A DNA stretch of 64,000 bases from Spirochaetota bacterium (GTDB lineage: Bacteria > Spirochaetota > UBA12135 > COTS27 > CAXSBA01), in contig OZ245054.1 in the NCBI GenBank assembly GCA_965224715.1, positions 2,004,334-2,068,333 of the forward strand. Reading direction: 5' to 3'. Under the pieces are notes generated by a model. The model had not been told where the DNA came from, ran no database searches, and saw nothing but the letters and a program-made list of their open reading frames with translations. Shown piece by piece: positions 48,008 through 58,717 of the stretch; the stretch's first letter is position 1, and each line of letters starts with the position of its first letter. A program made the translations under genes and the position numbers.

Positions 48008-51000
48008 TCACGCTGCTCTATTCAACAACTGAATATAAATTTCTTCCGTCTTCTTTGCAATATCTTCCTGACTATATGCAGGGTCCGGAAGCCCTGTATT
48101 TTCGTCATATAGGAAATTATGTATTGCCGTCTTAATACTTGCCTTGGTGGCCTCTGTCGCTTTCCAGTCAGTCATTCGAGACATAATTTCTTTGAGTTTG
48201 GCTAATAGTTCTACAGCTACCTTTTTAATTTTCTTGATTTCTTCCTTGTTTAATGTTTGCTTGTTCAGCAAGTCAAAAATAAATAAACTATCCTGGTCAG
48301 GCAGCTCTTCACGGATATGCCGTTTCTCCTCTCTATCCAGGTCACCGTAAAACTTCAATAATTCCTCGAAAGTTTTCTCGATTGTCAATCTATCCTTTTC
48401 CTTGTTGTAATCCTTTATCAAATCTTGATAATGTTGCTGAAAATCAGTACGGAGTGGGTTTTGTTTCATCATCTCAGCTAGCTTAGAGTCGATGACTGAT
48501 TTCAGATTTTGAACAGTGGTGTTTTTTTTACTAGACTTTTTAAACTCCTGACGTAATCGTTCAAAATCTATCTTGGAAATATTATAAAGATGCCCATCAC
48601 CCTCATAACTATCTCTAATCTCAATGGCATCATCAATAATGCCGTGCAGTTCCTTAATAATCTCAGAAATGTCTGCATTGTTTCGGTCACTCATAAGACT
48701 TCTATAAATGATATTTAGCACGTCATAATCGTGGCGGTAATTATTTACCTGAGGTTTGATATTGATGCAGGCCTTGAACTTCTTGAATACCTCACGGCAC
48801 ATTATCTCAAAACGTTTGCGGGTCTGGTCGTTCTGATTAACGGCTTCCTTTGTGTTATCAATGGCCTTATTTCGCTCAAAGCCAGTGAACTTATTGATTT
48901 CGTCCAGTTCGACATTATTCTCTTTCAGGAATGCTTTGATAAATGCAATTCCCTCTGCTAAGTCTGCGATCAAGTATTCTTCAGCAGGTTTAATCGGATT
49001 AACCTCCGGACCACCGCCACCTTCATGTCCAGCAAAAGTAGCCAAGGCTTTTCTCAGATTTTTCAGGATACCGCAGTAATCCACAATAAGCCCATTGTTT
49101 TTGCCTTCATTAACACGGTTGGCTCTTGCTATGGCTTGCATCAGCGTATGAGCTTTTAGAGGTTTGTCTAGATAAAGGGTGGATAAACTTTTCACATCGA
49201 AACCTGTAAGCCACATAGCACAAACAAAAACAACTCTTAGGGGGTGTTCTGTATTCTTAAAGGCACTTTCCATATCTATCCGTTCACCGCCTGGTACATC
49301 AAATCCATTAAGTAGTCTTTCTCTATGTTTCTCAATACTCACATCCCACTTGGCGAATTTCTCTACCTCGCCTTGCTCTTCTGATACCACTACTGACATA
49401 ATCGTTTCTTCCATCCAGGCAATTTGCCGTTCTCGGAAAACCATTTCTTCTGGTTCAGTTATTTTTCGTTCAGTGGTTTTTAGATTTTCAATTTTTTTCT
49501 TCCATTCCTCTTGTACAACATCATACATCCGAACACAGGTGACTTTATCTATACACACAAACATTGCTTTGCCACTTTCCCAGGCTGTAGAATAATGCTC
49601 CACAAAGTCTTTGGCAATCTGCCGTAGACGTTTTTCAGCGGTGATGATATGGTAGTCTCTCCGCAATTCTTTTTCTAATTTCTCGGTAGTGTTAATATCC
49701 TCCACTTCCAGTTCAGCGAGTTTCTCTGCTATTCTCTCGTTAAGGCCATCGGTAGTAATGCGGAGTTTCTCTCCTCTGGCATCATAATAGAGAGGAACTG
49801 TTGCTCCATCTTCAACTGCTCGTTGAAAATCGTAAGTAGAGATATAATCCCCAAACACATCTTTGGTCACTTCATCCTCACCCTTGAATAGAGGTGTTCC
49901 TGTAAAGCCAATATAACTGGCGTTAGGAATAGCATTTCTCATATTAAGAGACAGCCGGCCATATTGAGTACGGTGGGCTTCGTCTGAGATAACGATAATA
50001 TCCTCTCTCTCAGAATACGGTTTGGACGGGTCAATATCTTTGTTAAATTTCTGAATGAGAGTAAATACAAAGGCTTTATGCTGAGACAGTAAGTCCGTTA
50101 AATGTTTTCCACTGGCTGCACGACACTCATCTTTATCATTATCCACAAGCTCACATCCGGCAAAGGTTTTATAAATCTGGGTATCCAGGTCGTCCCGGTC
50201 GGTCAACACCAAGAAGGTATAATTTCCGCCCAATTTGCGGTGAATCTTACGGGTAAAAAACACCATACTGTACGATTTCCCGCTACCCTGAGTATGCCAA
50301 AAGACTCCCAGTTTTCCTTTCCGTTCTTTACGCTCTTTTACGGCTTCAATGGCCTTATTTACCCCCAGGAACTGCTGGTTCTGAGCGACAATCTTGGTCA
50401 GGCTCCGACTGCTATTATCAAAAAGAATAAAGTTTTCAACTATATCAATCAGATTAGCTTTGGTACAAATACCGTTTAACAGGGTTTCCATATTCACAAC
50501 GCCCCTGTCTTCCTCTTTTAATCGTTTCCATTCTCTAAAAAATTTGAAAGGAGAAGAGAAGGGGCCTACCACCGCTTCAATGCCATTTCCCAGAATACAG
50601 AGAGCATTGTGATGAAAGAGTTGGGGACTCCGTTCTTTATAGGTAACTAGATTTTCTTCATAGGCTGCCTGTACGCTTTTGTGAACATTTTTAAGTTCCA
50701 TAAACACCAAGGGAATACCATTAACAAATCCGATAACATCAGCCCGACGGCGACCAAGGGGACCATGTATCCAAAATTCTCGCACACAAAGGAAATGATT
50801 GTTTTCCGGATTGGAATAATCGATAAGTTTTAGTTTCTGTTTTTCCTGTTCTCCTTTGTCGTTTTTGAATGTTACTTGGACACCGTCTTTAAGGAGTTCG
50901 TATTTTTCCCGGTTTATTTGGAGAAGTGATTGTGTTGTGGAATATTCAGTGATTGTACGGATAGCGTCATCATAGGCGGTTTCTGGAATGTTTGGATTAA

Positions 51001-51184
51001 ATTTCGCCAGTGCTTCTCGGAGATAGCGGGTTAATACAACTTCCAGATTATTTCCCCTACCAAGGAGGCTTTCTTTTCCAAAATCTTCATTGTTATAAGC
51101 CAATACATTTTCCCAGCCAAGTTGTTTCTCTAAGTAATCGGCTGTGGTGGTTTGAACTAAGTTATCTTCTGTGAATAGGTTCAT
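48008..51184 (-). CDS. hsdR: Type I restriction enzyme, R subunit
   Basis: 1058 aa. N-terminal nuclease region, SF2 helicase motifs (HTQGSGKS, VISDEAHRTQ, QAIARANR) and a C-terminal DUF3387-like tail (DSLFIFDLL). Confidence 0.95.
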   Translation of the reverse strand: MNLFTEDNLVQTTTADYLEKQLGWENVLAYNNEDFGKESLLGRGNNLEVVLTRYLREALAKFNPNIPETAYDDAIRTITEYSTTQSLLQINREKYELLKDGVQVTFKNDKGEQEKQKLKLIDYSNPENNHFLCVREFWIHGPLGRRRADVIGFVNGIPLVFMELKNVHKSVQAAYEENLVTYKERSPQLFHHNALCILGNGIEAVVGPFSSPFKFFREWKRLKEEDRGVVNMETLLNGICTKANLIDIVENFILFDNSSRSLTKIVAQNQQFLGVNKAIEAVKERKERKGKLGVFWHTQGSGKSYSMVFFTRKIHRKLGGNYTFLVLTDRDDLDTQIYKTFAGCELVDNDKDECRAASGKHLTDLLSQHKAFVFTLIQKFNKDIDPSKPYSEREDIIVISDEAHRTQYGRLSLNMRNAIPNASYIGFTGTPLFKGEDEVTKDVFGDYISTYDFQRAVEDGATVPLYYDARGEKLRITTDGLNERIAEKLAELEVEDINTTEKLEKELRRDYHIITAEKRLRQIAKDFVEHYSTAWESGKAMFVCIDKVTCVRMYDVVQEEWKKKIENLKTTERKITEPEEMVFRERQIAWMEETIMSVVVSEEQGEVEKFAKWDVSIEKHRERLLNGFDVPGGERIDMESAFKNTEHPLRVVFVCAMWLTGFDVKSLSTLYLDKPLKAHTLMQAIARANRVNEGKNNGLIVDYCGILKNLRKALATFAGHEGGGGPEVNPIKPAEEYLIADLAEGIAFIKAFLKENNVELDEINKFTGFERNKAIDNTKEAVNQNDQTRKRFEIMCREVFKKFKACINIKPQVNNYRHDYDVLNIIYRSLMSDRNNADISEIIKELHGIIDDAIEIRDSYEGDGHLYNISKIDFERLRQEFKKSSKKNTTVQNLKSVIDSKLAEMMKQNPLRTDFQQHYQDLIKDYNKEKDRLTIEKTFEELLKFYGDLDREEKRHIREELPDQDSLFIFDLLNKQTLNKEEIKKIKKVAVELLAKLKEIMSRMTDWKATEATKASIKTAIHNFLYDENTGLPDPAYSQEDIAKKTEEIYIQLLNRAA

Positions 51185-51353
51185 TTTTTTTCTTCGCTAA
51201 TCAACGAAAACTCTTTATTTCCATTATATCAACATTTTAAAAAGGATGTGTGTTTTTTGATAACCATTGCAATGAAATCACATATGAACATCGATAAACA
51301 TGGATGATGGGATGTCAATAAGCATAACTTTAGAGACAAAACCTTTTGCCCAT

Positions 51354-51366
51354 CGTATTATAACAT
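51354..51366 (-). promoter_or_regulatory. Candidate extended -10 promoter (TGTTATAAT) upstream of hsdR
   Basis: The minus strand reads ATGTTATAATACG. The 13-mer CGTATTATAACAT (plus strand) recurs exactly at 52230-52242 upstream of the HNH gene. No good -35 element is seen. Confidence 0.4.
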
Positions 51367-51504
51367 GGTAGAAGTAGAGCCGCAGAAAGCACAAAAAAAA
51401 TGCAGAGGAGAGGAATTGAAAGGATTAACCGCAATCGATACGCAAATGACGAATGGTTTATAAAAATAAGAGATTAAAGTTGTAATCGCAGAGAATGCAG
51501 AGTT

Positions 51505-52137
51505 CTATTCAGAACAAGATTTCTTTATTTTTTGAACAGCTTTTTTTTCTTCATTATCCATTTTTAAATCATATTTGTTTTTAATATTTATCCATAAATC
51601 AGCATATTGACAAATAAAGCTTTCTTGAGGCAACCAATGAGCTATATCTTTAGCGCCTTTGCTTCGATTAGCTTTCTTAAATACTGCCAGCAAATTTTCA
51701 TGATCGTTGGCAAATTCCTTTTTTTGTTTCTTAGTCCAATTCTTTCCACCAGATAAGTAAGCCTCTTTAAGAGGGACAACATGATCGATGTCAAGATCAC
51801 TGCTCTTGTAATAATATTTTTTTGTATAAAACCCCCACCATTTACCTGACAAAACTTTACACTTTTTCTTAGTTTTAAAAGTTACGGGAATTTCACTAGA
51901 AGCAATAAGTATTTCATGGCGTTCATTTTGACAATCTCCATCATCATCAATCCAATGTCTCCAGTTTTTGCGGTTGTATTTTTCATTAGCTTTTTTTTGA
52001 GGTGATACAATACTCTCATTATGATAATGATATGAGCCATCCATATAATGACCCCCATATTTATCAGTTCTTCCTGAATGAGAAAAGCTAAACCAACAAA
52101 TGGCGATCAATATAATGACTGTTTTTTTTAACTTCAA
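51505..52137 (-). CDS. Secreted YHYH-motif / DUF1524 (His-Me finger, HNH-like) nuclease
   Basis: Signal peptide (VIILIAICWFSFSHS), GGHY...YHYH motif, WRHWIDDDGDCQNERHEIL, and the DUF1524 catalytic block DIDHVVPLKEAYLSGG...FANDHENLLAV...ANRSKG. Confidence 0.8.
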   Translation of the reverse strand: MKLKKTVIILIAICWFSFSHSGRTDKYGGHYMDGSYHYHNESIVSPQKKANEKYNRKNWRHWIDDDGDCQNERHEILIASSEIPVTFKTKKKCKVLSGKWWGFYTKKYYYKSSDLDIDHVVPLKEAYLSGGKNWTKKQKKEFANDHENLLAVFKKANRSKGAKDIAHWLPQESFICQYADLWINIKNKYDLKMDNEEKKAVQKIKKSCSE

Positions 52138-52229
52138 TCTACTATAATAAAGTTATAACCACAAAACCATTACATGGTCGAGGTGCTAATAAGCACAACT
52201 TTGGAGACAAAAATTTTTACCATCCCTAT

Positions 52230-52242
52230 CGTATTATAACAT
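52230..52242 (-). promoter_or_regulatory. Candidate extended -10 promoter (TGTTATAAT) upstream of the HNH/DUF1524 gene
   Basis: Second exact copy of CGTATTATAACAT, embedded in a ~110-bp direct repeat shared with the hsdR upstream region. Confidence 0.4.
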
Positions 52243-52314
52243 AGCGGAAATGGAATCGCAGAGGGCACAGAGACCGCAAAGAAGAGAAACCGAAAAAATT
52301 ATCGCCTGATTATT

Positions 52315-52476
52315 TCATCTTCTGTACGAATCCGTCAAGTCTTTGCTTGCACAGTAGTTAAATTCGAATCTATTTCTTCCTCTTTCTTTCTCGTCTGGAC
52401 TACCAATGAAACAAACACCATCATCTAAATCGTACTCTAATCCTTTGTCTGGAGTAGGATTAACAGTAGTATTCAT
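52315..52476 (-). CDS. Hypothetical small protein (53 aa, below the ORF-track cutoff)
   Basis: Hand translation gives MNTTVNPTPDKGLEYDLDDGVCFIGSPDEKERGRNRFEFNYCASKDLTDSYRR. It has an ATG start and a TGA stop. It lies 58 nt downstream of the 61-aa ORF on the same strand. No family was recognised. Confidence 0.3.
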   Translation of the reverse strand: MNTTVNPTPDKGLEYDLDDGVCFIGSPDEKERGRNRFEFNYCASKDLTDSYRR

Positions 52477-52534
52477 TAAAAAAGAACCTTGAACATAAAA
52501 ACGAGGGTGTAATTCTTTTGGCTTGTTTCTTTTA

Positions 52535-52720
52535 CTATTTCTTTTTATATCCTAATTTTTCTAATTCGTTATAAATAAACTTATGAGTCATGTTATTATG
52601 CTCTTTACATAAATCCTTTAAGGCTTGTTTTACTCCTGATGAATTTGTGTATTGATTTACAACATAGTTGCGTTCATGTTTTTCTGAACAGTTAAAATAT
52701 TCCCAATCTGATTTAGACAT
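52535..52720 (-). CDS. Hypothetical small protein (61 aa)
   Basis: ATG preceded by a strong SD (TAAGGAGGATTTTATG on the minus strand), with a TTGACT hexamer further upstream. No family was confidently recognised. Confidence 0.5.
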   Translation of the reverse strand: MSKSDWEYFNCSEKHERNYVVNQYTNSSGVKQALKDLCKEHNNMTHKFIYNELEKLGYKKK

Positions 52721-53025
52721 AAAATCCTCCTTATATTCTACATAATAATGGTATCATACTATCTTATGAAAAGTCAAGTTTTTTAGTTTTCTTGTGCTGA
52801 ATTCAAGGGGCAAATGAACAGTAAATAAAAAGAGGAACATTCCTATACGATTGTTAATAAACCCAAATCAAAGGAAGTCCCTACGGATAGTGTATCACAA
52901 TCGTATTCTCATATTCCCTGACCCGTTTAATCCATAAATAAGATTAGTTTTCTTATCGGTTTCCAAAGAAGTAGATTCTTTGTAACTGGCTATGTTATTT
53001 ATTGTAATTTTTGTTATTATTTCGC

Positions 53026-54228
53026 TCATACCTGAACATCTCCATTCATAAGTTTAGGCAATAGCAAATCTCTTAATAATTTTAGGTTTTGGTTTTTCTT
53101 AACAAGTATTTTGGTCTGAGCCAATGTGATAGAAACAAATTCATTGAATAATAAAACAAACTTCTTCTTTGGAATTAGAATATCCATTCCACGAAAAGCT
53201 GTTTTATTTATTTCTTTAAAAGTGGTACCACCAGCATTTGAAATGATTTCATACTTTCTAAACATTAAATTGTATAAAAAATACCATCGAAAATGTTCAT
53301 CATTTGGTATCAATGATATAAATCCCTGATTTGTACAACACGGATTATCGAAAATCCCAAAAAATCCAATTGAAGCACGACTGGTCATAAGGATAGTATT
53401 CTTTGGTAACATTTTCGCGCTACTTTTTTGAAGCCCCAGAGGAGTTATTTTTCTATCTGAGCCAAGAAGTATGAGACTATTATTATTAGTTAAGTCTTTG
53501 GGTACAAACCACTCTATTACCCCATTATCCCAAAACTCTGACTTGGAAGTTGAAGGGGTGCCACCTCCAATACATTCACACACCTCCCCCAGCGTCCTCC
53601 TCTCCCATCCCTCGGGTATCCCGTCCACAATCTTTACCTTCTCGTGCCCGGGAAACTTGAACCGCACAAACCACTCCTTATACAAATGCCGTGCCGCCTG
53701 TTCCAACAGAGCAATACGGCGGTTGTTGTTTTCAATCAGGTCATCGTAGGCGGAGAGGATGTCGGCAATACGTTTTTGGGTGGGGAGGGGGGGGAGAGCA
53801 ATTTTAATATCGGCTATAGCCTCCTTTTGGGCACGTTGGCGGCCAGAAGCACCAACCATACTTTTTATCGCAGGTCTAGTAATTGTCTCACTTTTAGAAA
53901 GATAATATAAATAGTGATTATCTATCTTCTTTTCTTTTGGTCTAAAAACGATATACTCAGTTGACCCAAAAGCACCAGTTGTTTCCAACTTTGGTACAAA
54001 TGCAATTTTGCCGTGCTCTAAACAAGGAGTAATTCTGGCAAAAATTATGTCATTCTCGCAGAACCGTGCCCCACCACCTTTTAGTGTACGCTGGCCTTTG
54101 GGGTACACATTCTTTTTTTCAGGATTGACATCCTCCATAGGAATAAAATCATAGTTTTCCCCTTTTATTAAAGGTACTTTTGGATTTATTTGTACAATTT
54201 CATCAAATCGGTAAATTTTCATACTCAC
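53026..54228 (-). CDS. hsdS: Type I restriction enzyme, S (specificity) subunit
   Basis: 400 aa. Two target-recognition domains are separated by the conserved central helix (LPPLPTQKRIADILSAYDDLIENNNRRIALLEQAARHLYKEWF). A C-terminal conserved helix is also present (LLRDLLLPKLMNGDV). GTG (54228) or ATG (54222) start behind GGGAGGTGGTGGA. Confidence 0.9.
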   Translation of the reverse strand: MSMKIYRFDEIVQINPKVPLIKGENYDFIPMEDVNPEKKNVYPKGQRTLKGGGARFCENDIIFARITPCLEHGKIAFVPKLETTGAFGSTEYIVFRPKEKKIDNHYLYYLSKSETITRPAIKSMVGASGRQRAQKEAIADIKIALPPLPTQKRIADILSAYDDLIENNNRRIALLEQAARHLYKEWFVRFKFPGHEKVKIVDGIPEGWERRTLGEVCECIGGGTPSTSKSEFWDNGVIEWFVPKDLTNNNSLILLGSDRKITPLGLQKSSAKMLPKNTILMTSRASIGFFGIFDNPCCTNQGFISLIPNDEHFRWYFLYNLMFRKYEIISNAGGTTFKEINKTAFRGMDILIPKKKFVLLFNEFVSITLAQTKILVKKNQNLKLLRDLLLPKLMNGDVQV

Positions 54229-56236
54229 TCCACCACCTCCCAGTGTCCACCTTTCGCAATTCCTATCATTTCAATTTTTTCATGCTTTCTATTTTATAAC
54301 CGCAGAGGACCTGAGATCGCAGAAAAGTATAACTCCGCGCTCCTCCGTGCTCTCCGCGGTTTATTTTCTTCACTCCATCACCTCCCAGTATCCACCTTTC
54401 GCAATTCCAATCCACTTCAATTTTTCCATGCAGAGGACGCTGAGATCGCAGAGAAATGTAACTCCGCGTTCCTCCGTGCTCTCCGCGGTTTATTTTCTTC
54501 ACTCCATCACCTCCCAGTATCCGCTTTTCGCAATTCCTATCATTTCAATTTTGTAACCGCAGAGGACCTGAGATCGCAGAGAAGTATAGCTCCGCGTTAC
54601 TCTGTGCTCTCCGCGGTTTATTTTCTTCACTCCATCACCTCCCAGTATCCGCTTTTCGCAATTCCTATCATTTCAATTTTGTAACCGCAGAGGACCTGAG
54701 ATCGCAGAAAAGTATAACTCCGCGTTCCTCCGCGCTCTCCGCGGTTTATTTTCTTTCATTCCACCACCTCCCAGTGTCCACCTTTCGCAATTCCTATCAT
54801 TTCAATTTTTTCATGCTTTCTATTTTATAACCGCAGAGGACGCTGAGATCGCAGAGAAGTATAACTCCGCGTTCCTCCGTGCTCTCCGCGGTTTATTTTC
54901 TTTCATTCCACCACCTCCCAGTGTCCACCTTCGCAATTCCTATCATTTCAATTTTGTAACCGCAGAGGACGCTGAGATCGCAGAGAAGTATAACTCCGCG
55001 TTCCTCCGTGCTCTCCGCGGTTTATTTTCTTTCATTCCACCACCTCCCAGTGTCCACCTTCGCAATTCCTATCATTTCAATTTTTTCATGCTTTCTATTT
55101 TATAACCGCAGAGGACCTGAGATCGCAGAAAAGTATAACTCCGCGTTCCTCCGCGCTCTCCGCGGTTTATTTTCTTTCATTCCACCACCTCCCAGTGTCC
55201 ACCTTTCGCAATTCCTATCATTTCAATTTTTTCATGCTTTCTATTTTATAACCGCAGAGGACCTGAGATCGCAGAAAAGTATAACTCCGCGTTCCTCCGT
55301 GCTCTCCGCGGTTTATTTTCTTCACTCCATCACCTCCCAGTATCCACCTTCGCAATTCCAATCCACTTCAATCTTTCTATTTTATAACCGCAGAGGACGC
55401 TGAGATCGCAGAAAAATGTAACTCCGCGCTCCTCTGTGCTCTCCGCGGTTTATTTTCTTCACTCCAACACCTCCCAGTGTCCACCTTTCGCAATTCCAAT
55501 CCACTTCAATTTTTCCATGCTTTCTATTTTATAACCGCAGAGGACGCTGAGATCGCAGAAAAATGTAACTCCGCGTTCCTCCGTGCTCTCCGCGGTTTAT
55601 TTTCTTTCACTCCACCACCTCCCAGTATCCGCTTTTCGCAATTCCAATCCACTTCAATCTTTCTATTTTATAACCGCAGAGGACGCTGAGATCGCAGAAA
55701 AATGTAACTCCGCGTTCCTCCGTGCTCTCCGCGGTTTATTTTCTTTCATTCCACCACCTCCCAGTATCCGCTTTTCACAATTCCTATCATTTCAATTTTG
55801 TAACCGCAGAGGACGCTGAGATCGCAAAGAAATGTAACTCCGCGCTCCTCCGTGCTCTCCGCGGTTTATTTTCTTCACTCCATCACCTCCCAGTGTCCGC
55901 TTTTCGCAATTCCTATCATTTCAATTTTGTAACCGCAGAGGACGCTGAGATCGCAAAGAAATGTAACTCCGCGCTCCTCCGTGCTCTCCGCGGTTTATTT
56001 TCTTCACTCCAACACCTCCCAGTATCCGCCTTTCGCAATTCCAATCCACTTCAATTTTGTAACCGCAGAGGACGCTGAGATCGCAGAGAAGTATAACTCC
56101 GCGCTCCTCTGTGCTCTCCGCGGTTTATTTTCTTCACTCCAACACCTCCCAGTATCCGCCTTTCGCAATTCCTATCATTTCAATTTTTCCATGCTTTCTA
56201 TTTTATAACCGCAGAGGACGCTGAGATTGCAGAGGA
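54225..56236. repeat. Tandem array of 14 full + 1 partial hairpin-containing units (period 128-147 bp) between the GxxExxY gene and hsdS
   Basis: The core AACCGCAGAGGAC(G)CTGAGATCGCAGA.AA.T.TAACTCCGCG.TCCTC.G.GCTCTCCGCGGTT recurs 14 times. One copy (~54431) lacks the leading AACCG. The partial 15th unit starts at 56207. Core starts are 54298, ~54431, 54555, 54683, 54829, 54958, 55104, 55250, 55386, 55533, 55672, 55802, 55931 and 56061. Cores alternate with mosaic linker variants. Confidence 0.95.
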
Positions 56237-56617
56237 TTCTTGTAAGTTATTCACCAATCTTTTTATTCCATTTTTCACTTTGAGCGTATTGAAATTAATA
56301 ATTAGGCCAACTTGTAGATTTTTAATTTTAAGATAATTAAGTAATTGTGCTTCATCAATGTTCGTTAATTCTTTTACAGCTTTACACTCAATGATTACTT
56401 TATTCTCTACGAAAAAATCACAACGAAAACCTACATCCAGTTTCAATCCCTTGTATTTAATAGGCATTTCATATTCTTTTAAATAGGAAAGCCCTGCTAT
56501 ATCCATCTCTTTCGCCAATGCAGATTGGTAAACACTTTCAAGGAATCCACAACCAAGCTCCTTGTGGACTTCAATTGCACAGCTAATAATTTTTTCAGTT
56601 ATCTTGTTTATTTCCAT
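56198..56617 (-). CDS. GxxExxY protein (PD-(D/E)XK-like, PDDEXK_3 family)
   Basis: 139 aa with the eponymous motif in GCGFLESVYQSAL and a nuclease-like core (DFFVENKVIIECKAV). The last 11 codons (SAISASSAVIK) are encoded by repeat-array sequence. Confidence 0.85.
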   Translation of the reverse strand: MEINKITEKIISCAIEVHKELGCGFLESVYQSALAKEMDIAGLSYLKEYEMPIKYKGLKLDVGFRCDFFVENKVIIECKAVKELTNIDEAQLLNYLKIKNLQVGLIINFNTLKVKNGIKRLVNNLQESSAISASSAVIK

Positions 56618-56618
56618 A

Positions 56619-56644
56619 ACTCCCTCTGCGTTTCTCTGTGGTTA
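56619..56644 (-). repeat. Left inverted-repeat arm of the GxxExxY cassette (also supplies its SD)
   Basis: The minus strand reads TAACCACAGAGAAACGCAGAGGGAGTTATG. It starts at the hsdM stop codon. It is complementary in pattern to CCTCTGCAATCTCAGCGTCCTCTGCGGTT at the gene's 3' end (56207-56236). Confidence 0.6.
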
Positions 56645-58717
56645 TATCCCCAGTTCCTCAAAGTTTTTCTGGATTTTTTCGGCCAACACGACCGCTTCCT
56701 CATTAAGACCTTTTAACTCAGTATGAATTTCTCGCATTGTTTCTTCAAAATCAAAATCCTCGTCTTCCTCCTCAGGGGCAACGCCAACATACCTTCCAGG
56801 AGTAAGGCTCCAGTCATTTTTTTCGATTTCCGCTTTATCGACCAGTTTGCACAGACCTTCGACGTCTTGGTACTCTCCCTCCGGGAACCGCTCCAGCAGC
56901 CAGTTAGACTGCTTATGGAAATAGCGAACCTGTTTCAGGGTATTTATAAGCTCTTTCCGTTCCTCATCCAGGGCTTTCAGATTTTTAAGGATTTCTTTAC
57001 CATCCCAGGTATCGCTCTGTCTGGCTTTATATTCACCTTCTGCTACTTCAAGGTTTTTCTGAATGAGTTTAAACAGTAGGTCTATAGACTTTACTATGTC
57101 ACGGCTTTGTTCGGCAACAGGTTTCCACTCACCAGACAATCCCGATAGTTTTTTAATCTCCGCACCACCAGACTTCTTTTTACTTAACAAGGTAACCTGT
57201 TCGTTAAACGCACTTACATCACCGGACACAGTATCCAGAGCCTCGTTTAGTTCCTTGAACTGTTCCTGATGTTCCTCGGATAGTGACTGTTTACCAAGAA
57301 AGGCTTTAAGCGGTTTTACGATTTTATCCAGGGAATCCCGGAATTGTCCCAGAGGAGTAGCACAATCCAGTGCTGCCCCACAGGTTTTTGCAAGATAATC
57401 ACTTACCAGCGAAGCAAAGCGGTCATTCTCTTTTCGATATAGCCAGACTATGGAAGTAAGGCTTTTCTGCTGCTCAGGAGAAAAATCATAAATTACCCGT
57501 GTTACTTTGCGGTGAACATTACGGGCATCTATCATTAAGACCTTGTCGTTATTCGTCTTGGCTTTATCCAGAAACCATAATTCACAGGGAACGGTTCGTG
57601 TGTAAAAGAACCCTCCCCGAATAGCCATCATACAGTCAACGTGTCCAGTCTCAACCAGTTTACGGCGGACTTCTGCTTCCTTGTTTCCGGCACTGGAAGC
57701 CTGACTGGACATGACAAATCCACTTCGTCCCTTTTCACTTAGGTAGGAATAAAAATATGAAATCCACAGGTAGTTTCCATTGGATACTTTTTCTTTTTTG
57801 TTTACTCCAGGGAGACCAAACGGAAGCCTTGGGTCATTCTTTATTTTGTCCGCGTCCACCTCATCCACGTTAAAGGGAGGATTAGCCATTACATAATTTG
57901 CCTTCCCAATAAGTTCGTGGGGGTCTTCATAATACGATATTGCTTTTTGTATATTCCCCTCTAGTCCGTGAACAGCCAGGTTCATTTTGGCTAGACGAAT
58001 GGTAGTTGGGTTTTTCTCCATTCCATAAAATACGACCCTCTCGGAGGGACTTTGGTTATGGGCTTCAATAAAGTGAGCTGATTGAACAAACATCCCACCG
58101 GAGCCACAGGCGGGGTCAAGTACCTTTCCGTTTTCTGGTTCAATGACATTGACAATCATCTGGACGATTGATTGTGGGGTAAAAAACTCTCCGCCGTCAT
58201 GGGCTTTCAGACCAGCAAAACCAGTCAGAAAATACTCATAAATTCTACCGAATACATCTCCGTCGGCAGATTCCAGCGCGGGGTCATTGAAGGTTCTAAG
58301 CAGGTTCCCCAGGACATCATTATCGAGTTCCTGGTATTCACTTTTGGGAAGAACACCTTTCAGACCATCATAGTCGGTCTCGATACTTTCCATAGCATCG
58401 ATAATGGCTTTAGCTCTATCTTGCTCTGATGGTAATGACACAAGGTATTCAAACTGTGCCTTTTCCTGTAAGTACAAAGCACTCTTTCTAGCAAAGTCTT
58501 CTTTGGTTAATTCACGTGTTTTTCCACCACGGCTGGGGAGCGTTTTTACGATTTCTTCTTTAATCATCAAAAAACGGCTATAGGCATGACGTAGGAAAAT
58601 AAGCCCCATTACAGGCAGGAAGTATTCATTAGCGGCAAAGTTTGAGTTTGCCCGTAGGTTATCCGCACTCGACCAGAGGCGTTTTTCAATTTGTTCGATA
58701 TTTTCGAGTTGGCTCAT
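56642..58717 (-). CDS. hsdM: Type I restriction enzyme, M subunit (N6-adenine DNA methyltransferase)
   Basis: 691 aa. HsdM N-terminal domain, SAM-binding DPACGSGGM, catalytic NPPF (VMANPPFNV) and a long coiled-coil C-terminal extension ending in SLTPGRYVG. Confidence 0.95.
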   Translation of the reverse strand: MSQLENIEQIEKRLWSSADNLRANSNFAANEYFLPVMGLIFLRHAYSRFLMIKEEIVKTLPSRGGKTRELTKEDFARKSALYLQEKAQFEYLVSLPSEQDRAKAIIDAMESIETDYDGLKGVLPKSEYQELDNDVLGNLLRTFNDPALESADGDVFGRIYEYFLTGFAGLKAHDGGEFFTPQSIVQMIVNVIEPENGKVLDPACGSGGMFVQSAHFIEAHNQSPSERVVFYGMEKNPTTIRLAKMNLAVHGLEGNIQKAISYYEDPHELIGKANYVMANPPFNVDEVDADKIKNDPRLPFGLPGVNKKEKVSNGNYLWISYFYSYLSEKGRSGFVMSSQASSAGNKEAEVRRKLVETGHVDCMMAIRGGFFYTRTVPCELWFLDKAKTNNDKVLMIDARNVHRKVTRVIYDFSPEQQKSLTSIVWLYRKENDRFASLVSDYLAKTCGAALDCATPLGQFRDSLDKIVKPLKAFLGKQSLSEEHQEQFKELNEALDTVSGDVSAFNEQVTLLSKKKSGGAEIKKLSGLSGEWKPVAEQSRDIVKSIDLLFKLIQKNLEVAEGEYKARQSDTWDGKEILKNLKALDEERKELINTLKQVRYFHKQSNWLLERFPEGEYQDVEGLCKLVDKAEIEKNDWSLTPGRYVGVAPEEEDEDFDFEETMREIHTELKGLNEEAVVLAEKIQKNFEELGI

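Follow-up and report, generated by a model that had tools for sequence, protein, structure and literature searches.

Genes nested within type I restriction-modification (R-M) operons have been documented, including TgvAB in VPI-2 of Vibrio cholerae (PMC11411939) and PrrC in EcoprrI (PMC12707154), and a systematic survey by Payne et al. reported that type I R-M operons "frequently contained embedded genes", from which 'guilt-by-embedding' candidates were drawn (bioRxiv 10.1101/2024.01.29.577857). Such nested genes serve the discovery of anti-phage systems. The available passages of the first two papers contain no mechanism by which cargo enters the operon, and the word 'recombination' was not found in the available part of the survey. 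Other described systems place a repeat next to a small gene. For ssn genes, at least one repeat is found nearby in 71% and repeats on both sides in 42% (PMC11893778), and in the 23S rRNA intervening sequence (IVS) of Coxiella a stem encloses a short open reading frame (ORF); the element is vertically transmitted after horizontal acquisition, and its ORF can decay (PMC4990558). Here we describe a 64,000-nucleotide (nt) stretch of a Spirochaetota genome, C1:2004334-2068333, referred to below as the window, from a genome assembled as a single contig of 2.11 Mb with 36.3% G+C. It holds a type I R-M island of ~10.7 kb in which a GxxExxY gene with inverted repeat arms, a 2-kb tandem array and several other cargo genes lie between the hsd genes.

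The explanation that we consider best, and hold to be likely, is that the island is a horizontally acquired operon with two junctions, hsdM|hsdS and hsdS|hsdR, that act as nesting sites where cargo is turned over by ordinary recombination, and that the repeat arms belong to the GxxExxY gene as its own repeat family. All island genes are on the minus strand and Pfam, NCBIfam and PADLOC support the gene calls. hsdM (56642..58717, 691 amino acids [aa]) encodes the methyltransferase subunit (N6_Mtase 1.4e-78 and HsdM_N 6e-15 in Pfam; MTase_I 1.4e-263 in PADLOC), and a promoter scan placed a promoter-like site, TTGACA-18-TATTAT, before it at 58839-58810. The specificity subunit gene hsdS (53026..54228, 400 aa) matches Methylase_S (PF01420) in two stretches (7.3e-50), and the restriction subunit gene hsdR (48008..51184, 1058 aa) carries HSDR_N (PF04313), SWI2_SNF2 (PF18766), ResIII (PF04851) and T1R_D3-like (PF22679) domains (PADLOC REase_I 1.3e-167). 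The locus thus has what defines a type I R-M gene set, HsdM_N with N6_Mtase, two Methylase_S regions, and HSDR_N with a superfamily 2 motor. The island lies between a DsbA-like gene and ruvB at one end and hisE (PRA-PH), hisG and rmuC at the other.

A preliminary description of the window had already given this gene order, a tandem array and five motif sites, and all of these were recovered where it placed them (by Pfam, NCBIfam and PADLOC, by Tandem Repeats Finder [TRF], and from the sequence itself). The defense-system prediction it proposed returned MTase_I and REase_I in PADLOC, and also a PDC-S06 remnant. It counted three interruptions of the operon; there are two, one at each junction. 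Its statement that no mobility gene or tRNA marks the island holds: no tRNA was found in 38-64 kb of the window, and no integrase or transposase family matched among the ORFs scanned in and beside the island, in a scan that was not exhaustive. Rfam gave nothing above noise in 47-60 kb of the window, and blastn gave no match that would point to a plasmid or phage origin of the cargo or the array.

Horizontal transfer is supported by comparison with further alleles of the operon. Starting from the closest GxxExxY proteins, five informative contigs were reached. In L016, a Spirochaetaceae metagenome-assembled genome (the same record as L021), the order is hsdM, GxxExxY, a 461-aa SLFN_AlbA_2/HATPase_c_4/HTH gene, hsdS, DUF3644 plus EC042_2821 (PDC-S19), and hsdR. 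Its HsdM and HsdR are 88% and 87% identical in amino acids to those of the window and its GxxExxY 92%, whereas RuvB and HisG of the same genome are 50% and 34% identical and the operon has different flanks; the operon, cassette included, therefore appears to have moved horizontally. In gene content the island is an hsdM-hsdS-hsdR operon of type I with predicted restriction and methylation activity, and it was probably acquired by horizontal transfer. The central region of hsdS is 92% identical to L016 in nucleotides and the target-recognition domains differ. L017-L019 share the head of the L016 operon (hsdM, GxxExxY, a 461/457-aa gene, hsdS) and carry at hsdS|hsdR either RNase_T, a 300-aa gene and a reverse transcriptase, or an HTH/Peptidase_M78 gene. 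Nucleotide homology between the window and these distant alleles takes in hsdM and the cassette as far as the final base of the 3' arm (56206), then 66 nt of the array unit, the hsdS core, and hsdR, where homology to L016-L019 starts exactly at the start codon. A much closer allele is found in L101, a 105.8-kb Logan contig that shares the flanks of the window at both ends and aligns collinearly with it over 21 kb at 86-90%; a further contig, L106, encodes a DsbA 96% identical to that of the window. Synteny could not be followed in the nearest GTDB genomes, in which the closest family members have a DsbA only 31-37% identical and share no gene order.

The GxxExxY gene lies directly after hsdM (56198..56617, minus strand, 139 aa). 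Its protein scores 141.4 bits with PF13366, PDDEXK_3 (cut-off 22), and 145.2 bits with TIGR04256 (cut-off 35). This PD-(D/E)xK family is its only Pfam match, a sub-threshold similarity to Cas4 (E 0.004) was seen with PADLOC, and no solved structure was found by sequence search. The motif G24xxE27xxY30 and the residues D67, E77 and K79 are present, so nuclease activity is predicted; in an alignment of 32 sequences G24, E27, Y30 and D67 are invariant and E77 and K79 nearly so (>=90%). The 5' arm (AACCACAGAGAAACGCAGAGGGAGTT, 56618..56644, minus strand) is partly decayed and occupies the entire spacer from the hsdM stop to the ATG, while the 3' arm (CCTCTGCAATCTCAGCGTCCTCTGCGGTTA, 56207..56236, minus strand) codes for the C-terminal tail SSAISASSAVIK of the protein. 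The two arms are inverted repeats of each other, so that the cassette runs from AACCRCRGAG to CTCTGCGGTT between terminal inverted repeats, as a transposon or a miniature inverted-repeat transposable element (MITE) does. It is the only intact GxxExxY copy in the genome. A second PF13366 copy, at genome C1:138912-139151, is a pseudogene with an in-frame TAG that is 46% identical to the island gene.

Several comparisons indicate that this cassette is an old resident. It occupies the same site directly after hsdM in all six alleles that can be inspected there. Between the window and L016, the fraction of identical 4-fold degenerate sites is 36% in hsdM and 40% in GxxExxY, which is saturated, and dN/dS is 0.034 and 0.012, respectively. 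The arms have kept 26 of 29 nt (3' arm) and ~20 of 24 (5' arm) in the same comparison. Since the arms are conserved where 4-fold sites are saturated and dN/dS is low, the ORF and its arms have been kept by purifying selection; and since the cassette has not moved in six alleles and has diverged with hsdM to synonymous saturation, it would be a long-term resident and not a recent load. Judged by this shared divergence, the cassette is inherited together with hsdM in this operon lineage. The gene itself can be lost. In L101 an in-frame deletion of 188 nt (residues ~38-103) removed D67, E77 and K79 and left the 3' arm intact; the locus layout is the same, and the gene is therefore dispensable for it.

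The arm sequences form one real repeat family. The single heptad CTCTGCG is not over-represented in the genome (76 observed, ~86 expected). The arm, searched as a paired heptad, CTCYGYR-N2-4-CTCYGYR, with words 9-11 nt apart, gave 41 matches compared with 0-2 in shuffled genomes, in eight clusters across 2.11 Mb, four of them inside the 10.7-kb island; AAYCGCRGAG with up to one mismatch has 44 matches in the window where 6.7 are expected. Clusters so rare in the genome and so concentrated in the island are not explained by chance, and the possibility that the motifs are ubiquitous, which the preliminary description had named as a point that would undo its reading, does not apply. An arm consists of two to three heptads ~10 nt apart with the terminus AACCGCRGAG / CTCYGCGGTT. 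Read on the coding strand, the site at 56619-56644 is an arm of the 5' type, and 56207-56236, 52250-52285, 51483-51503 and 51378-51412 are 3'-type arms, the last being the weakest. The suggestion that such motifs occur at every junction stands for these five sites and fails elsewhere: no arm was found at the hsdS 3' junction (53026-52720), between the 61-aa and 53-aa ORFs, or at the outer borders of the island. The array contains 14 occurrences of the decamer CTCTGCGGTT and its complement, and about a dozen further places hold them, among them two mini-cassette sites and eight dispersed GGTT...AACC palindromes. Compared with one intact gene, the genome thus holds gene-less arm copies as 14 array hairpins, three solo arms, two mini-cassette sites and eight palindromes, a low copy number (tens) that is mostly a local tandem array. 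The dispersed palindromes (genome C1: 49071, 72208, 552931, 572996, 1004158, 1036767, 1342802 and 1631855) have the form CTCTGCGGTT-(24-43 nt)-AACCGCAGAG, in which the terminal decamer of the arm is kept with the GGTT/AACC ends toward the loop. Several lie just 3' of a multi-copy gene ending in DMGAYEVGGT.

The pairing of gene and arms reaches far beyond this operon. We collected 80 loci with GxxExxY relatives (41-92% identity) from many phyla, 77 of which had full flanks and were used for framing counts. Inverted repeats with a score of at least 36 frame 49 of the 77 loci and none of 507 controls, which comprised 385 shuffles and 122 windows shifted by 2.5 kb, none of which reached 36; pairing across loci was not used as a null because the loci share arm words, which would inflate it. 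CRCRGAG upstream together with CTCYGYG downstream is found on both sides in 31 of the 77 and on at least one side in 53, against a background of 0.09 arm-word clusters per kb. The GxxExxY gene with its arms is therefore a self-contained unit that recurs in many phyla. In tblastn, two of the 80 loci adjoin hsd genes, and the cassette is thus not a dedicated R-M component; a general tie of this GxxExxY clade to type I R-M was rejected on the same count. Mentions of GxxExxY in the published literature, in the parts available, are silent on function and repeats, and no account of its pairing with arms was found there; the partnership and its tandemly amplified gene-less derivatives seem undescribed in print.

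Two Spirochaetaceae-type assemblies, L020 (2500-6150) and L022 (5700-6800), carry GxxExxY genes (83-85% identical) outside any R-M locus. There kilobase arrays surround the gene; they are built of tandem 5'-type arms of 43 nt and of mini-cassettes, the latter made of arms and the last ~14 codons of the GxxExxY gene, and L020 also has a 23S_rRNA_IVP/bAvd gene and a DDE transposase nearby. As arm arrays stand beside GxxExxY in the window, L020 and L022, tandem amplification of gene-less arms recurs in this clade.

In the window this amplification has produced a tandem array of 14 units of 129-147 nt (54229..56206, minus strand) between the cassette and hsdS, with the final spacer running into hsdS. 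TRF reports it at 54286-56187 with a period of 129-147, 14.1 copies and 81% matches, and a pattern search found 14 hairpins. Read on the coding strand, each unit is a spacer followed by a gene-less arm hairpin of 64-65 nt, AACCGCGGAGAGCACGGAGGAACGCGGAG-TTAYAYTTYT-CTGCGATCTCAGCGTCCTCTGCGGTT (5' arm, loop, 3' arm). The spacer consists of a linker, the last ~20 codons of a deleted gene of the SLFN_AlbA_2/HATPase_c_4/HTH type, a Shine-Dalgarno sequence, GTGA or ATGA, and ~10 nt like the hsdS 5' end; it ends in IGIAKGGHWEVVE and a stop, GTGA or ATGA, and AGAAAATA. Its homologue in L016 is the final ~78 nt of the 461-aa gene (P0121, 10420-11805), which ends in GGAKGGHWEVVE and a stop and overlaps the hsdS start at GTGA. 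This match to the tail of an intact gene suggests that a Schlafen/AlbA_2-type gene was lost by deletion before the window and L101 diverged. That deletion has its left breakpoint at the outer end of the 3' arm, and the joint of the array unit lies at the outer end of the 5' arm, with the microhomology ACCG. The bases after GTGA (GAAAATAAACCG) resemble the hsdS 5' end (GAAAATTTACCG) and also the joint of hsdM stop and 5' arm seen in L016 (GGATATAAACCG). Within the array, mean pairwise identity is 94% for hairpins and 88% for spacers, and the units fall into three length classes and are mosaics of few variant blocks, as exchange among units by recombination would produce. The unit occurs nowhere else in the genome, its junction had no match in an exact-pattern scan of JGI metagenomes, and L101 shows what would be an intermediate, with the cassette, one tail unit and hsdS but no hairpin.

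Further features of the array are recorded here as observations. In 54820-54906 and equivalent units the hsdS Shine-Dalgarno sequence and start are kept, giving a mini-ORF of 26-28 codons through the hairpin, and some of these end in SAISASSAVIK, the same tail as the GxxExxY protein; the mini-ORFs are probably a by-product of duplication. On the opposite (plus) strand at 54345-56123, each unit is terminator-like (CCGYGCTCTCCGCGG + TTTATTTTCT), and the 16 such sites would block antisense transcription into hsdM. A CRISPR array was rejected, the spacers being 88% identical and derived from a gene tail, with no Cas family above threshold. A phase-variation shufflon of hsdS was likewise rejected, with no second hsdS, no invertase and only ~10 nt of hsdS per unit.

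The history that would account for the hsdM|hsdS junction under our preferred explanation begins with deletion of the Schlafen/AlbA_2-type gene between cassette and hsdS, which would have left ~60-80 nt of its 3' end. Illegitimate recombination at ACCG, a short homology shared by the 5' end of hsdS and the beginning of the 5' arm, may then have produced a duplicated cassette with the tail. Loss of the ORF from the duplicate would give the 65-nt hairpin, and unequal crossing-over could have amplified hairpin plus tail to 14 units in the lineage of the window. At hsdS|hsdR, where each allele holds different cargo, turnover would proceed by homologous exchange in the conserved hsd flanks together with microhomology- or repeat-mediated deletion and duplication. 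The breakpoints of the cargo differences are at short homologies, two of them at arm ends. Hairpin-prone arms are possible preferred breakpoints, and a dedicated loading enzyme would be unnecessary.

Much of the cargo at hsdS|hsdR is decayed. A 44-codon ORF (52898..53029, minus strand), which the preliminary description had not listed, overlaps the hsdS stop at ATGA and matches positions 2-38 of the 727 of PADLOC PDC-S06 (E 1.3e-10) and Pfam AAA_23 (27.3 bits). From this match it is the stump of a lost AAA ATPase of ~730 aa, a candidate defense gene; L101 keeps just 17 codons of it. An inverted repeat at 52834-52917 (AATACGATTGT ... ACAATCGTAT, 42 nt apart) sits exactly at the cut-off point. 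Downstream of the stump, homology between the window and L101 is broken for 168 nt in the window and 498 nt in L101, and resumes at a promoter-like site (TTGACT at 52777) and the 61-aa ORF that follows it (52535..52720, minus strand), which has its own Shine-Dalgarno sequence, is 64 aa long in L101 and belongs to no Pfam or NCBIfam family. The next ORF (52315..52476, minus strand, 53 aa) has an in-frame stop in L101 and a weak match to a PADLOC oligonucleotide-cyclase fragment (E 1.9e-4); it is probably a gene fragment. Another cargo gene of the junction (51505..52137, minus strand) encodes a protein with a DUF1524/GmrSD_C His-Me nuclease domain (PF07510 1.9e-8; NF033223 YHYH below cut-off) which, with its hydrophobic N-terminus and YHYH motif, is probably exported. 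Its homologues also occur outside R-M loci, for example in L102.

Two copies of a promoter module would serve this half of the operon. Copy 1 (52170..52290, minus strand), which precedes the DUF1524 gene, combines a solo 3'-type arm (52285-52250) with an extended -10 box TGTTATAAT and a stem-loop; copy 2 (51298..51412, minus strand), upstream of hsdR, has a weak solo arm (51412-51378), TGTTATAAT and a stem-loop. The copies may supply the promoters for the DUF1524 gene and hsdR. The duplicated module of ~110 nt is found nowhere else in the genome and had no match in an exact-pattern scan of JGI metagenomes. Its stem-loop (52170-52240 and 51298-51355 in the window, 9800-9875 in L101) has a conserved loop, TTTTGTCTCYAAAGTTRTGCTTATT, and no Rfam match; transcripts of the DUF1524 gene and of hsdR would begin with it, and the L101 stem pairs perfectly over 14 bp (CGGTAGGGATGGTG/CACCATCCCTACCG). 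The word AATACGAT, noted with the inverted repeat at 52834-52917, recurs after both TATAAT boxes of the module. A third solo 3'-type arm (51483..51503, minus strand) lies immediately 3' of the DUF1524 stop codon and has decayed in both L101 and L106. None of the three solo arms has an inverted partner.

In both sister contigs, genes for a SocA_Panacea antitoxin and a Doc-like toxin lie between DUF1524 and hsdR (L101:10742-11690, L106:746-1472). In L101 and L106 the promoter equivalent to that of module copy 2 stands ahead of this pair. The toxin gene of L101, 157 aa long, matches Fic/DOC only weakly and below cut-off and, as read from the sequence, has an HxxxNxGNKR stretch of Doc type; its L106 counterpart is shortened to 83 aa through a deletion running from one CTTTTTA stretch to another (microhomology). 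The window lacks both genes, and the stem-loop of the module takes their position. Given that both sister contigs have the pair, progressive loss is the simplest reading for the window.

Some observations weigh against this account. Neither for the island nor for the cassette was an empty site found, so that no insertion is directly shown: L101 and L106, the relatives reached through homologues of DsbA and DUF1524, carry the island, L107 ends 128 nt upstream of dsbA, and the closest hsdM among 400 genomes from the phylum reaches 50% identity. L101 and L106 are contigs from short reads (Logan) in which the array may be collapsed, so the one-unit state of the sister is uncertain; the L106 contig breaks before the array region. 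The order of the array-building events is read from the junction sequences alone. The better conservation of hairpins than of spacers hints at selection, which purely neutral amplification does not predict. Lastly, all three solo arms are co-oriented and lie beside promoters or a stop codon, which decay alone leaves unexplained, and they may have a function, for example as operators or RNA elements.

Another possibility, which we hold only tentatively, is that the arms act in the RNA of the operon. The long-range stem around GxxExxY and the 14 hairpins would then be processing or stability elements that uncouple expression of hsdM, GxxExxY and hsdS, like the RNase III-cut stems of the 23S rRNA IVS or REP hairpins that protect upstream mRNA; such a role is compatible with our account of the origin of the array. 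Coding-strand RNA folds of the hairpins reach -27 to -34 kcal/mol compared with -19 to -27 on the opposite strand, because the stems hold G.U pairs, and all 14 fold better on the coding strand, by 5-12 kcal/mol. No T-run follows the hairpins on that strand, so they would not terminate the operon transcript. Their conservation relative to the spacers fits as well, and an ORF enclosed by an RNase III stem has a precedent in the IVS (PMC4990558). Across 49 independent framed loci, transition mismatches in the arms are G.U in 104 cases and A.C in 73 (binomial p = 0.024), or 26 and 13 when counted per locus, a modest bias that is borderline by locus (p = 0.053). However, the 14 hairpins are paralogous and amount to one observation, the long tandem runs of 5'-type arms alone in L020 and L022 are unable to form such stems, and the solo arms are unable to pair. 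Taken together, the G.U bias, the folds and the hairpin conservation are suggestive of a role in the transcript but not decisive.

A broader proposal places the protein at the center. The analogies with Ssn/NTS and RAYT/REP suggest that the GxxExxY protein would most likely recognize or cut its own arms. That gene and arms form a cross-phylum PD-(D/E)xK nuclease-repeat partnership in which nicking or binding of arm hairpins drives local amplification of gene-less arms (as in the arrays of the window, L020 and L022), makes arm ends preferred breakpoints and so speeds the turnover of cargo in defense operons is a further step that we regard as rather doubtful. If true, the arms would explain how cargo becomes embedded, in some lineages at least.

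The preliminary description proposed a shared insertion or recombination mechanism by which cassettes are loaded into the operon. In its explicit form, the arms would be recombination sites of a dedicated system, with GxxExxY as nuclease or recombinase and integron-like gene loading, and we judge this to be improbable. What stands of it is that the motifs are one repeat family, that arms are present at four places of the island and rare elsewhere, and that two rearrangement breakpoints are at arm ends; moreover, in the window, L101 and L106 an arm-containing module stands before each cargo unit, and one intact nuclease gene coexists with many gene-less arm copies. A dedicated loader is not supported by the remaining evidence. 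L016-L019 have cargo at both junctions and arms only around GxxExxY, which for all other cargo is the same gene order without junction motifs that the preliminary description had named as counting against it, although GxxExxY keeps its arms. The solo arms are unpaired and two of them are part of the duplicated promoter module; the toxin-antitoxin pair lies downstream of the module, its presence and absence fit decay by deletion, and the truncated L106 toxin, the best-resolved cargo change, maps to a short homology rather than to an arm. The immobility of the cassette in six alleles, the unchanged organization of L101 after destruction of its nuclease ORF and the scarcity of hsd neighbors among the 80 GxxExxY loci point in the same direction. 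An integron-like cassette array as such was rejected, given the unpaired solo arms, the armless cargo of L016-L019 and the lack of an integrase match in the scanned ORFs. Finally, that the 14-unit array is an assembly artefact, by over-expansion or mis-join of a short repeat, is hardly credible: tandem repeats are error-prone in assemblies and the sister contig has one unit, but the genome is a single 2.11-Mb contig, the units differ (81% matches, three length classes, mosaic variants) and are thus individually resolvable and not collapsed or stuttered, and kilobase arm arrays stand beside GxxExxY in two independent assemblies, L020 and L022.

With cargo turnover by ordinary recombination as the preferred explanation, the island can be compared with described systems. 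Like PrrC, TgvAB, the Campylobacter jejuni rlo genes and the cases of Payne et al., it has extra same-strand genes between the hsd genes that vary between alleles, and its hsdS|hsdR junction holds a GmrSD-type (DUF1524) nuclease domain and an AAA ATPase candidate (PDC-S06), joined in relatives by PDC-S19 and a reverse transcriptase. It differs in that much of the cargo is decayed (a 44-codon remnant, a gene fragment, a lost toxin-antitoxin pair), that the DUF1524 protein looks exported and has no DUF262 partner domain, and that the cargo is accompanied by repeat arms and a 2-kb tandem array. The six comparable alleles provide a worked example of exchange in conserved hsd flanks, deletions at short homologies, and repeat ends at two breakpoints.

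Bacterial MITEs and minisatellites such as Correia/NEMIS, RPE and ERIC are gene-less hairpin derivatives of a larger element. The array shares with them gene-less hairpin derivatives between operon genes in varying copy number. Its copies are head-to-tail, each with a piece of the host (gene tail and hsdS leader), which argues for unequal recombination rather than repeated transposition. The 23S rRNA IVS resembles the cassette as an ORF enclosed by inverted flanks in a transcribed unit, in which the ORF decays while the stem persists, as in L101; the cassette differs in lying outside rRNA and in its ORF family, it matched no Rfam family, and cutting by RNase III would here be hypothetical.

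RAYT proteins are Y1 HUH transposases, and the REPINs associated with them are dispersed in hundreds of copies. The likeness to RAYT/REP lies in one protein gene flanked by an inverted palindromic repeat that also occurs gene-less, whereas GxxExxY has a restriction-endonuclease fold and its gene-less copies here are mostly a local tandem array. The closest likeness is to Ssn/NTS-SRM, in which a small nuclease gene is flanked by its own hairpin repeat across phyla and gene-less copies occur elsewhere: GxxExxY loci have arms on at least one side in 69% and on both in 40%, compared with 71% and 42% for ssn. The differences are in the fold (PD-(D/E)xK instead of GIY-YIG), in the repeat (two to three heptads at ~10-nt spacing instead of one conserved hairpin) and in copy number (tens here, hundreds for Ssn repeats), and the action of GxxExxY on its arms is predicted by analogy. 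Having neither a GIY-YIG nor a Y1 HUH domain, GxxExxY at most works like Ssn or RAYT and is not a member of either. For the very large GxxExxY family, the locus indicates that arms are conserved in nucleotide sequence, that the gene can die while the arms persist, and that gene-less arms amplify. If the protein does act on its arms, it would represent a second fold, after the GIY-YIG of Ssn, among small repeat-paired site-specific nucleases, and a possible tool enzyme.

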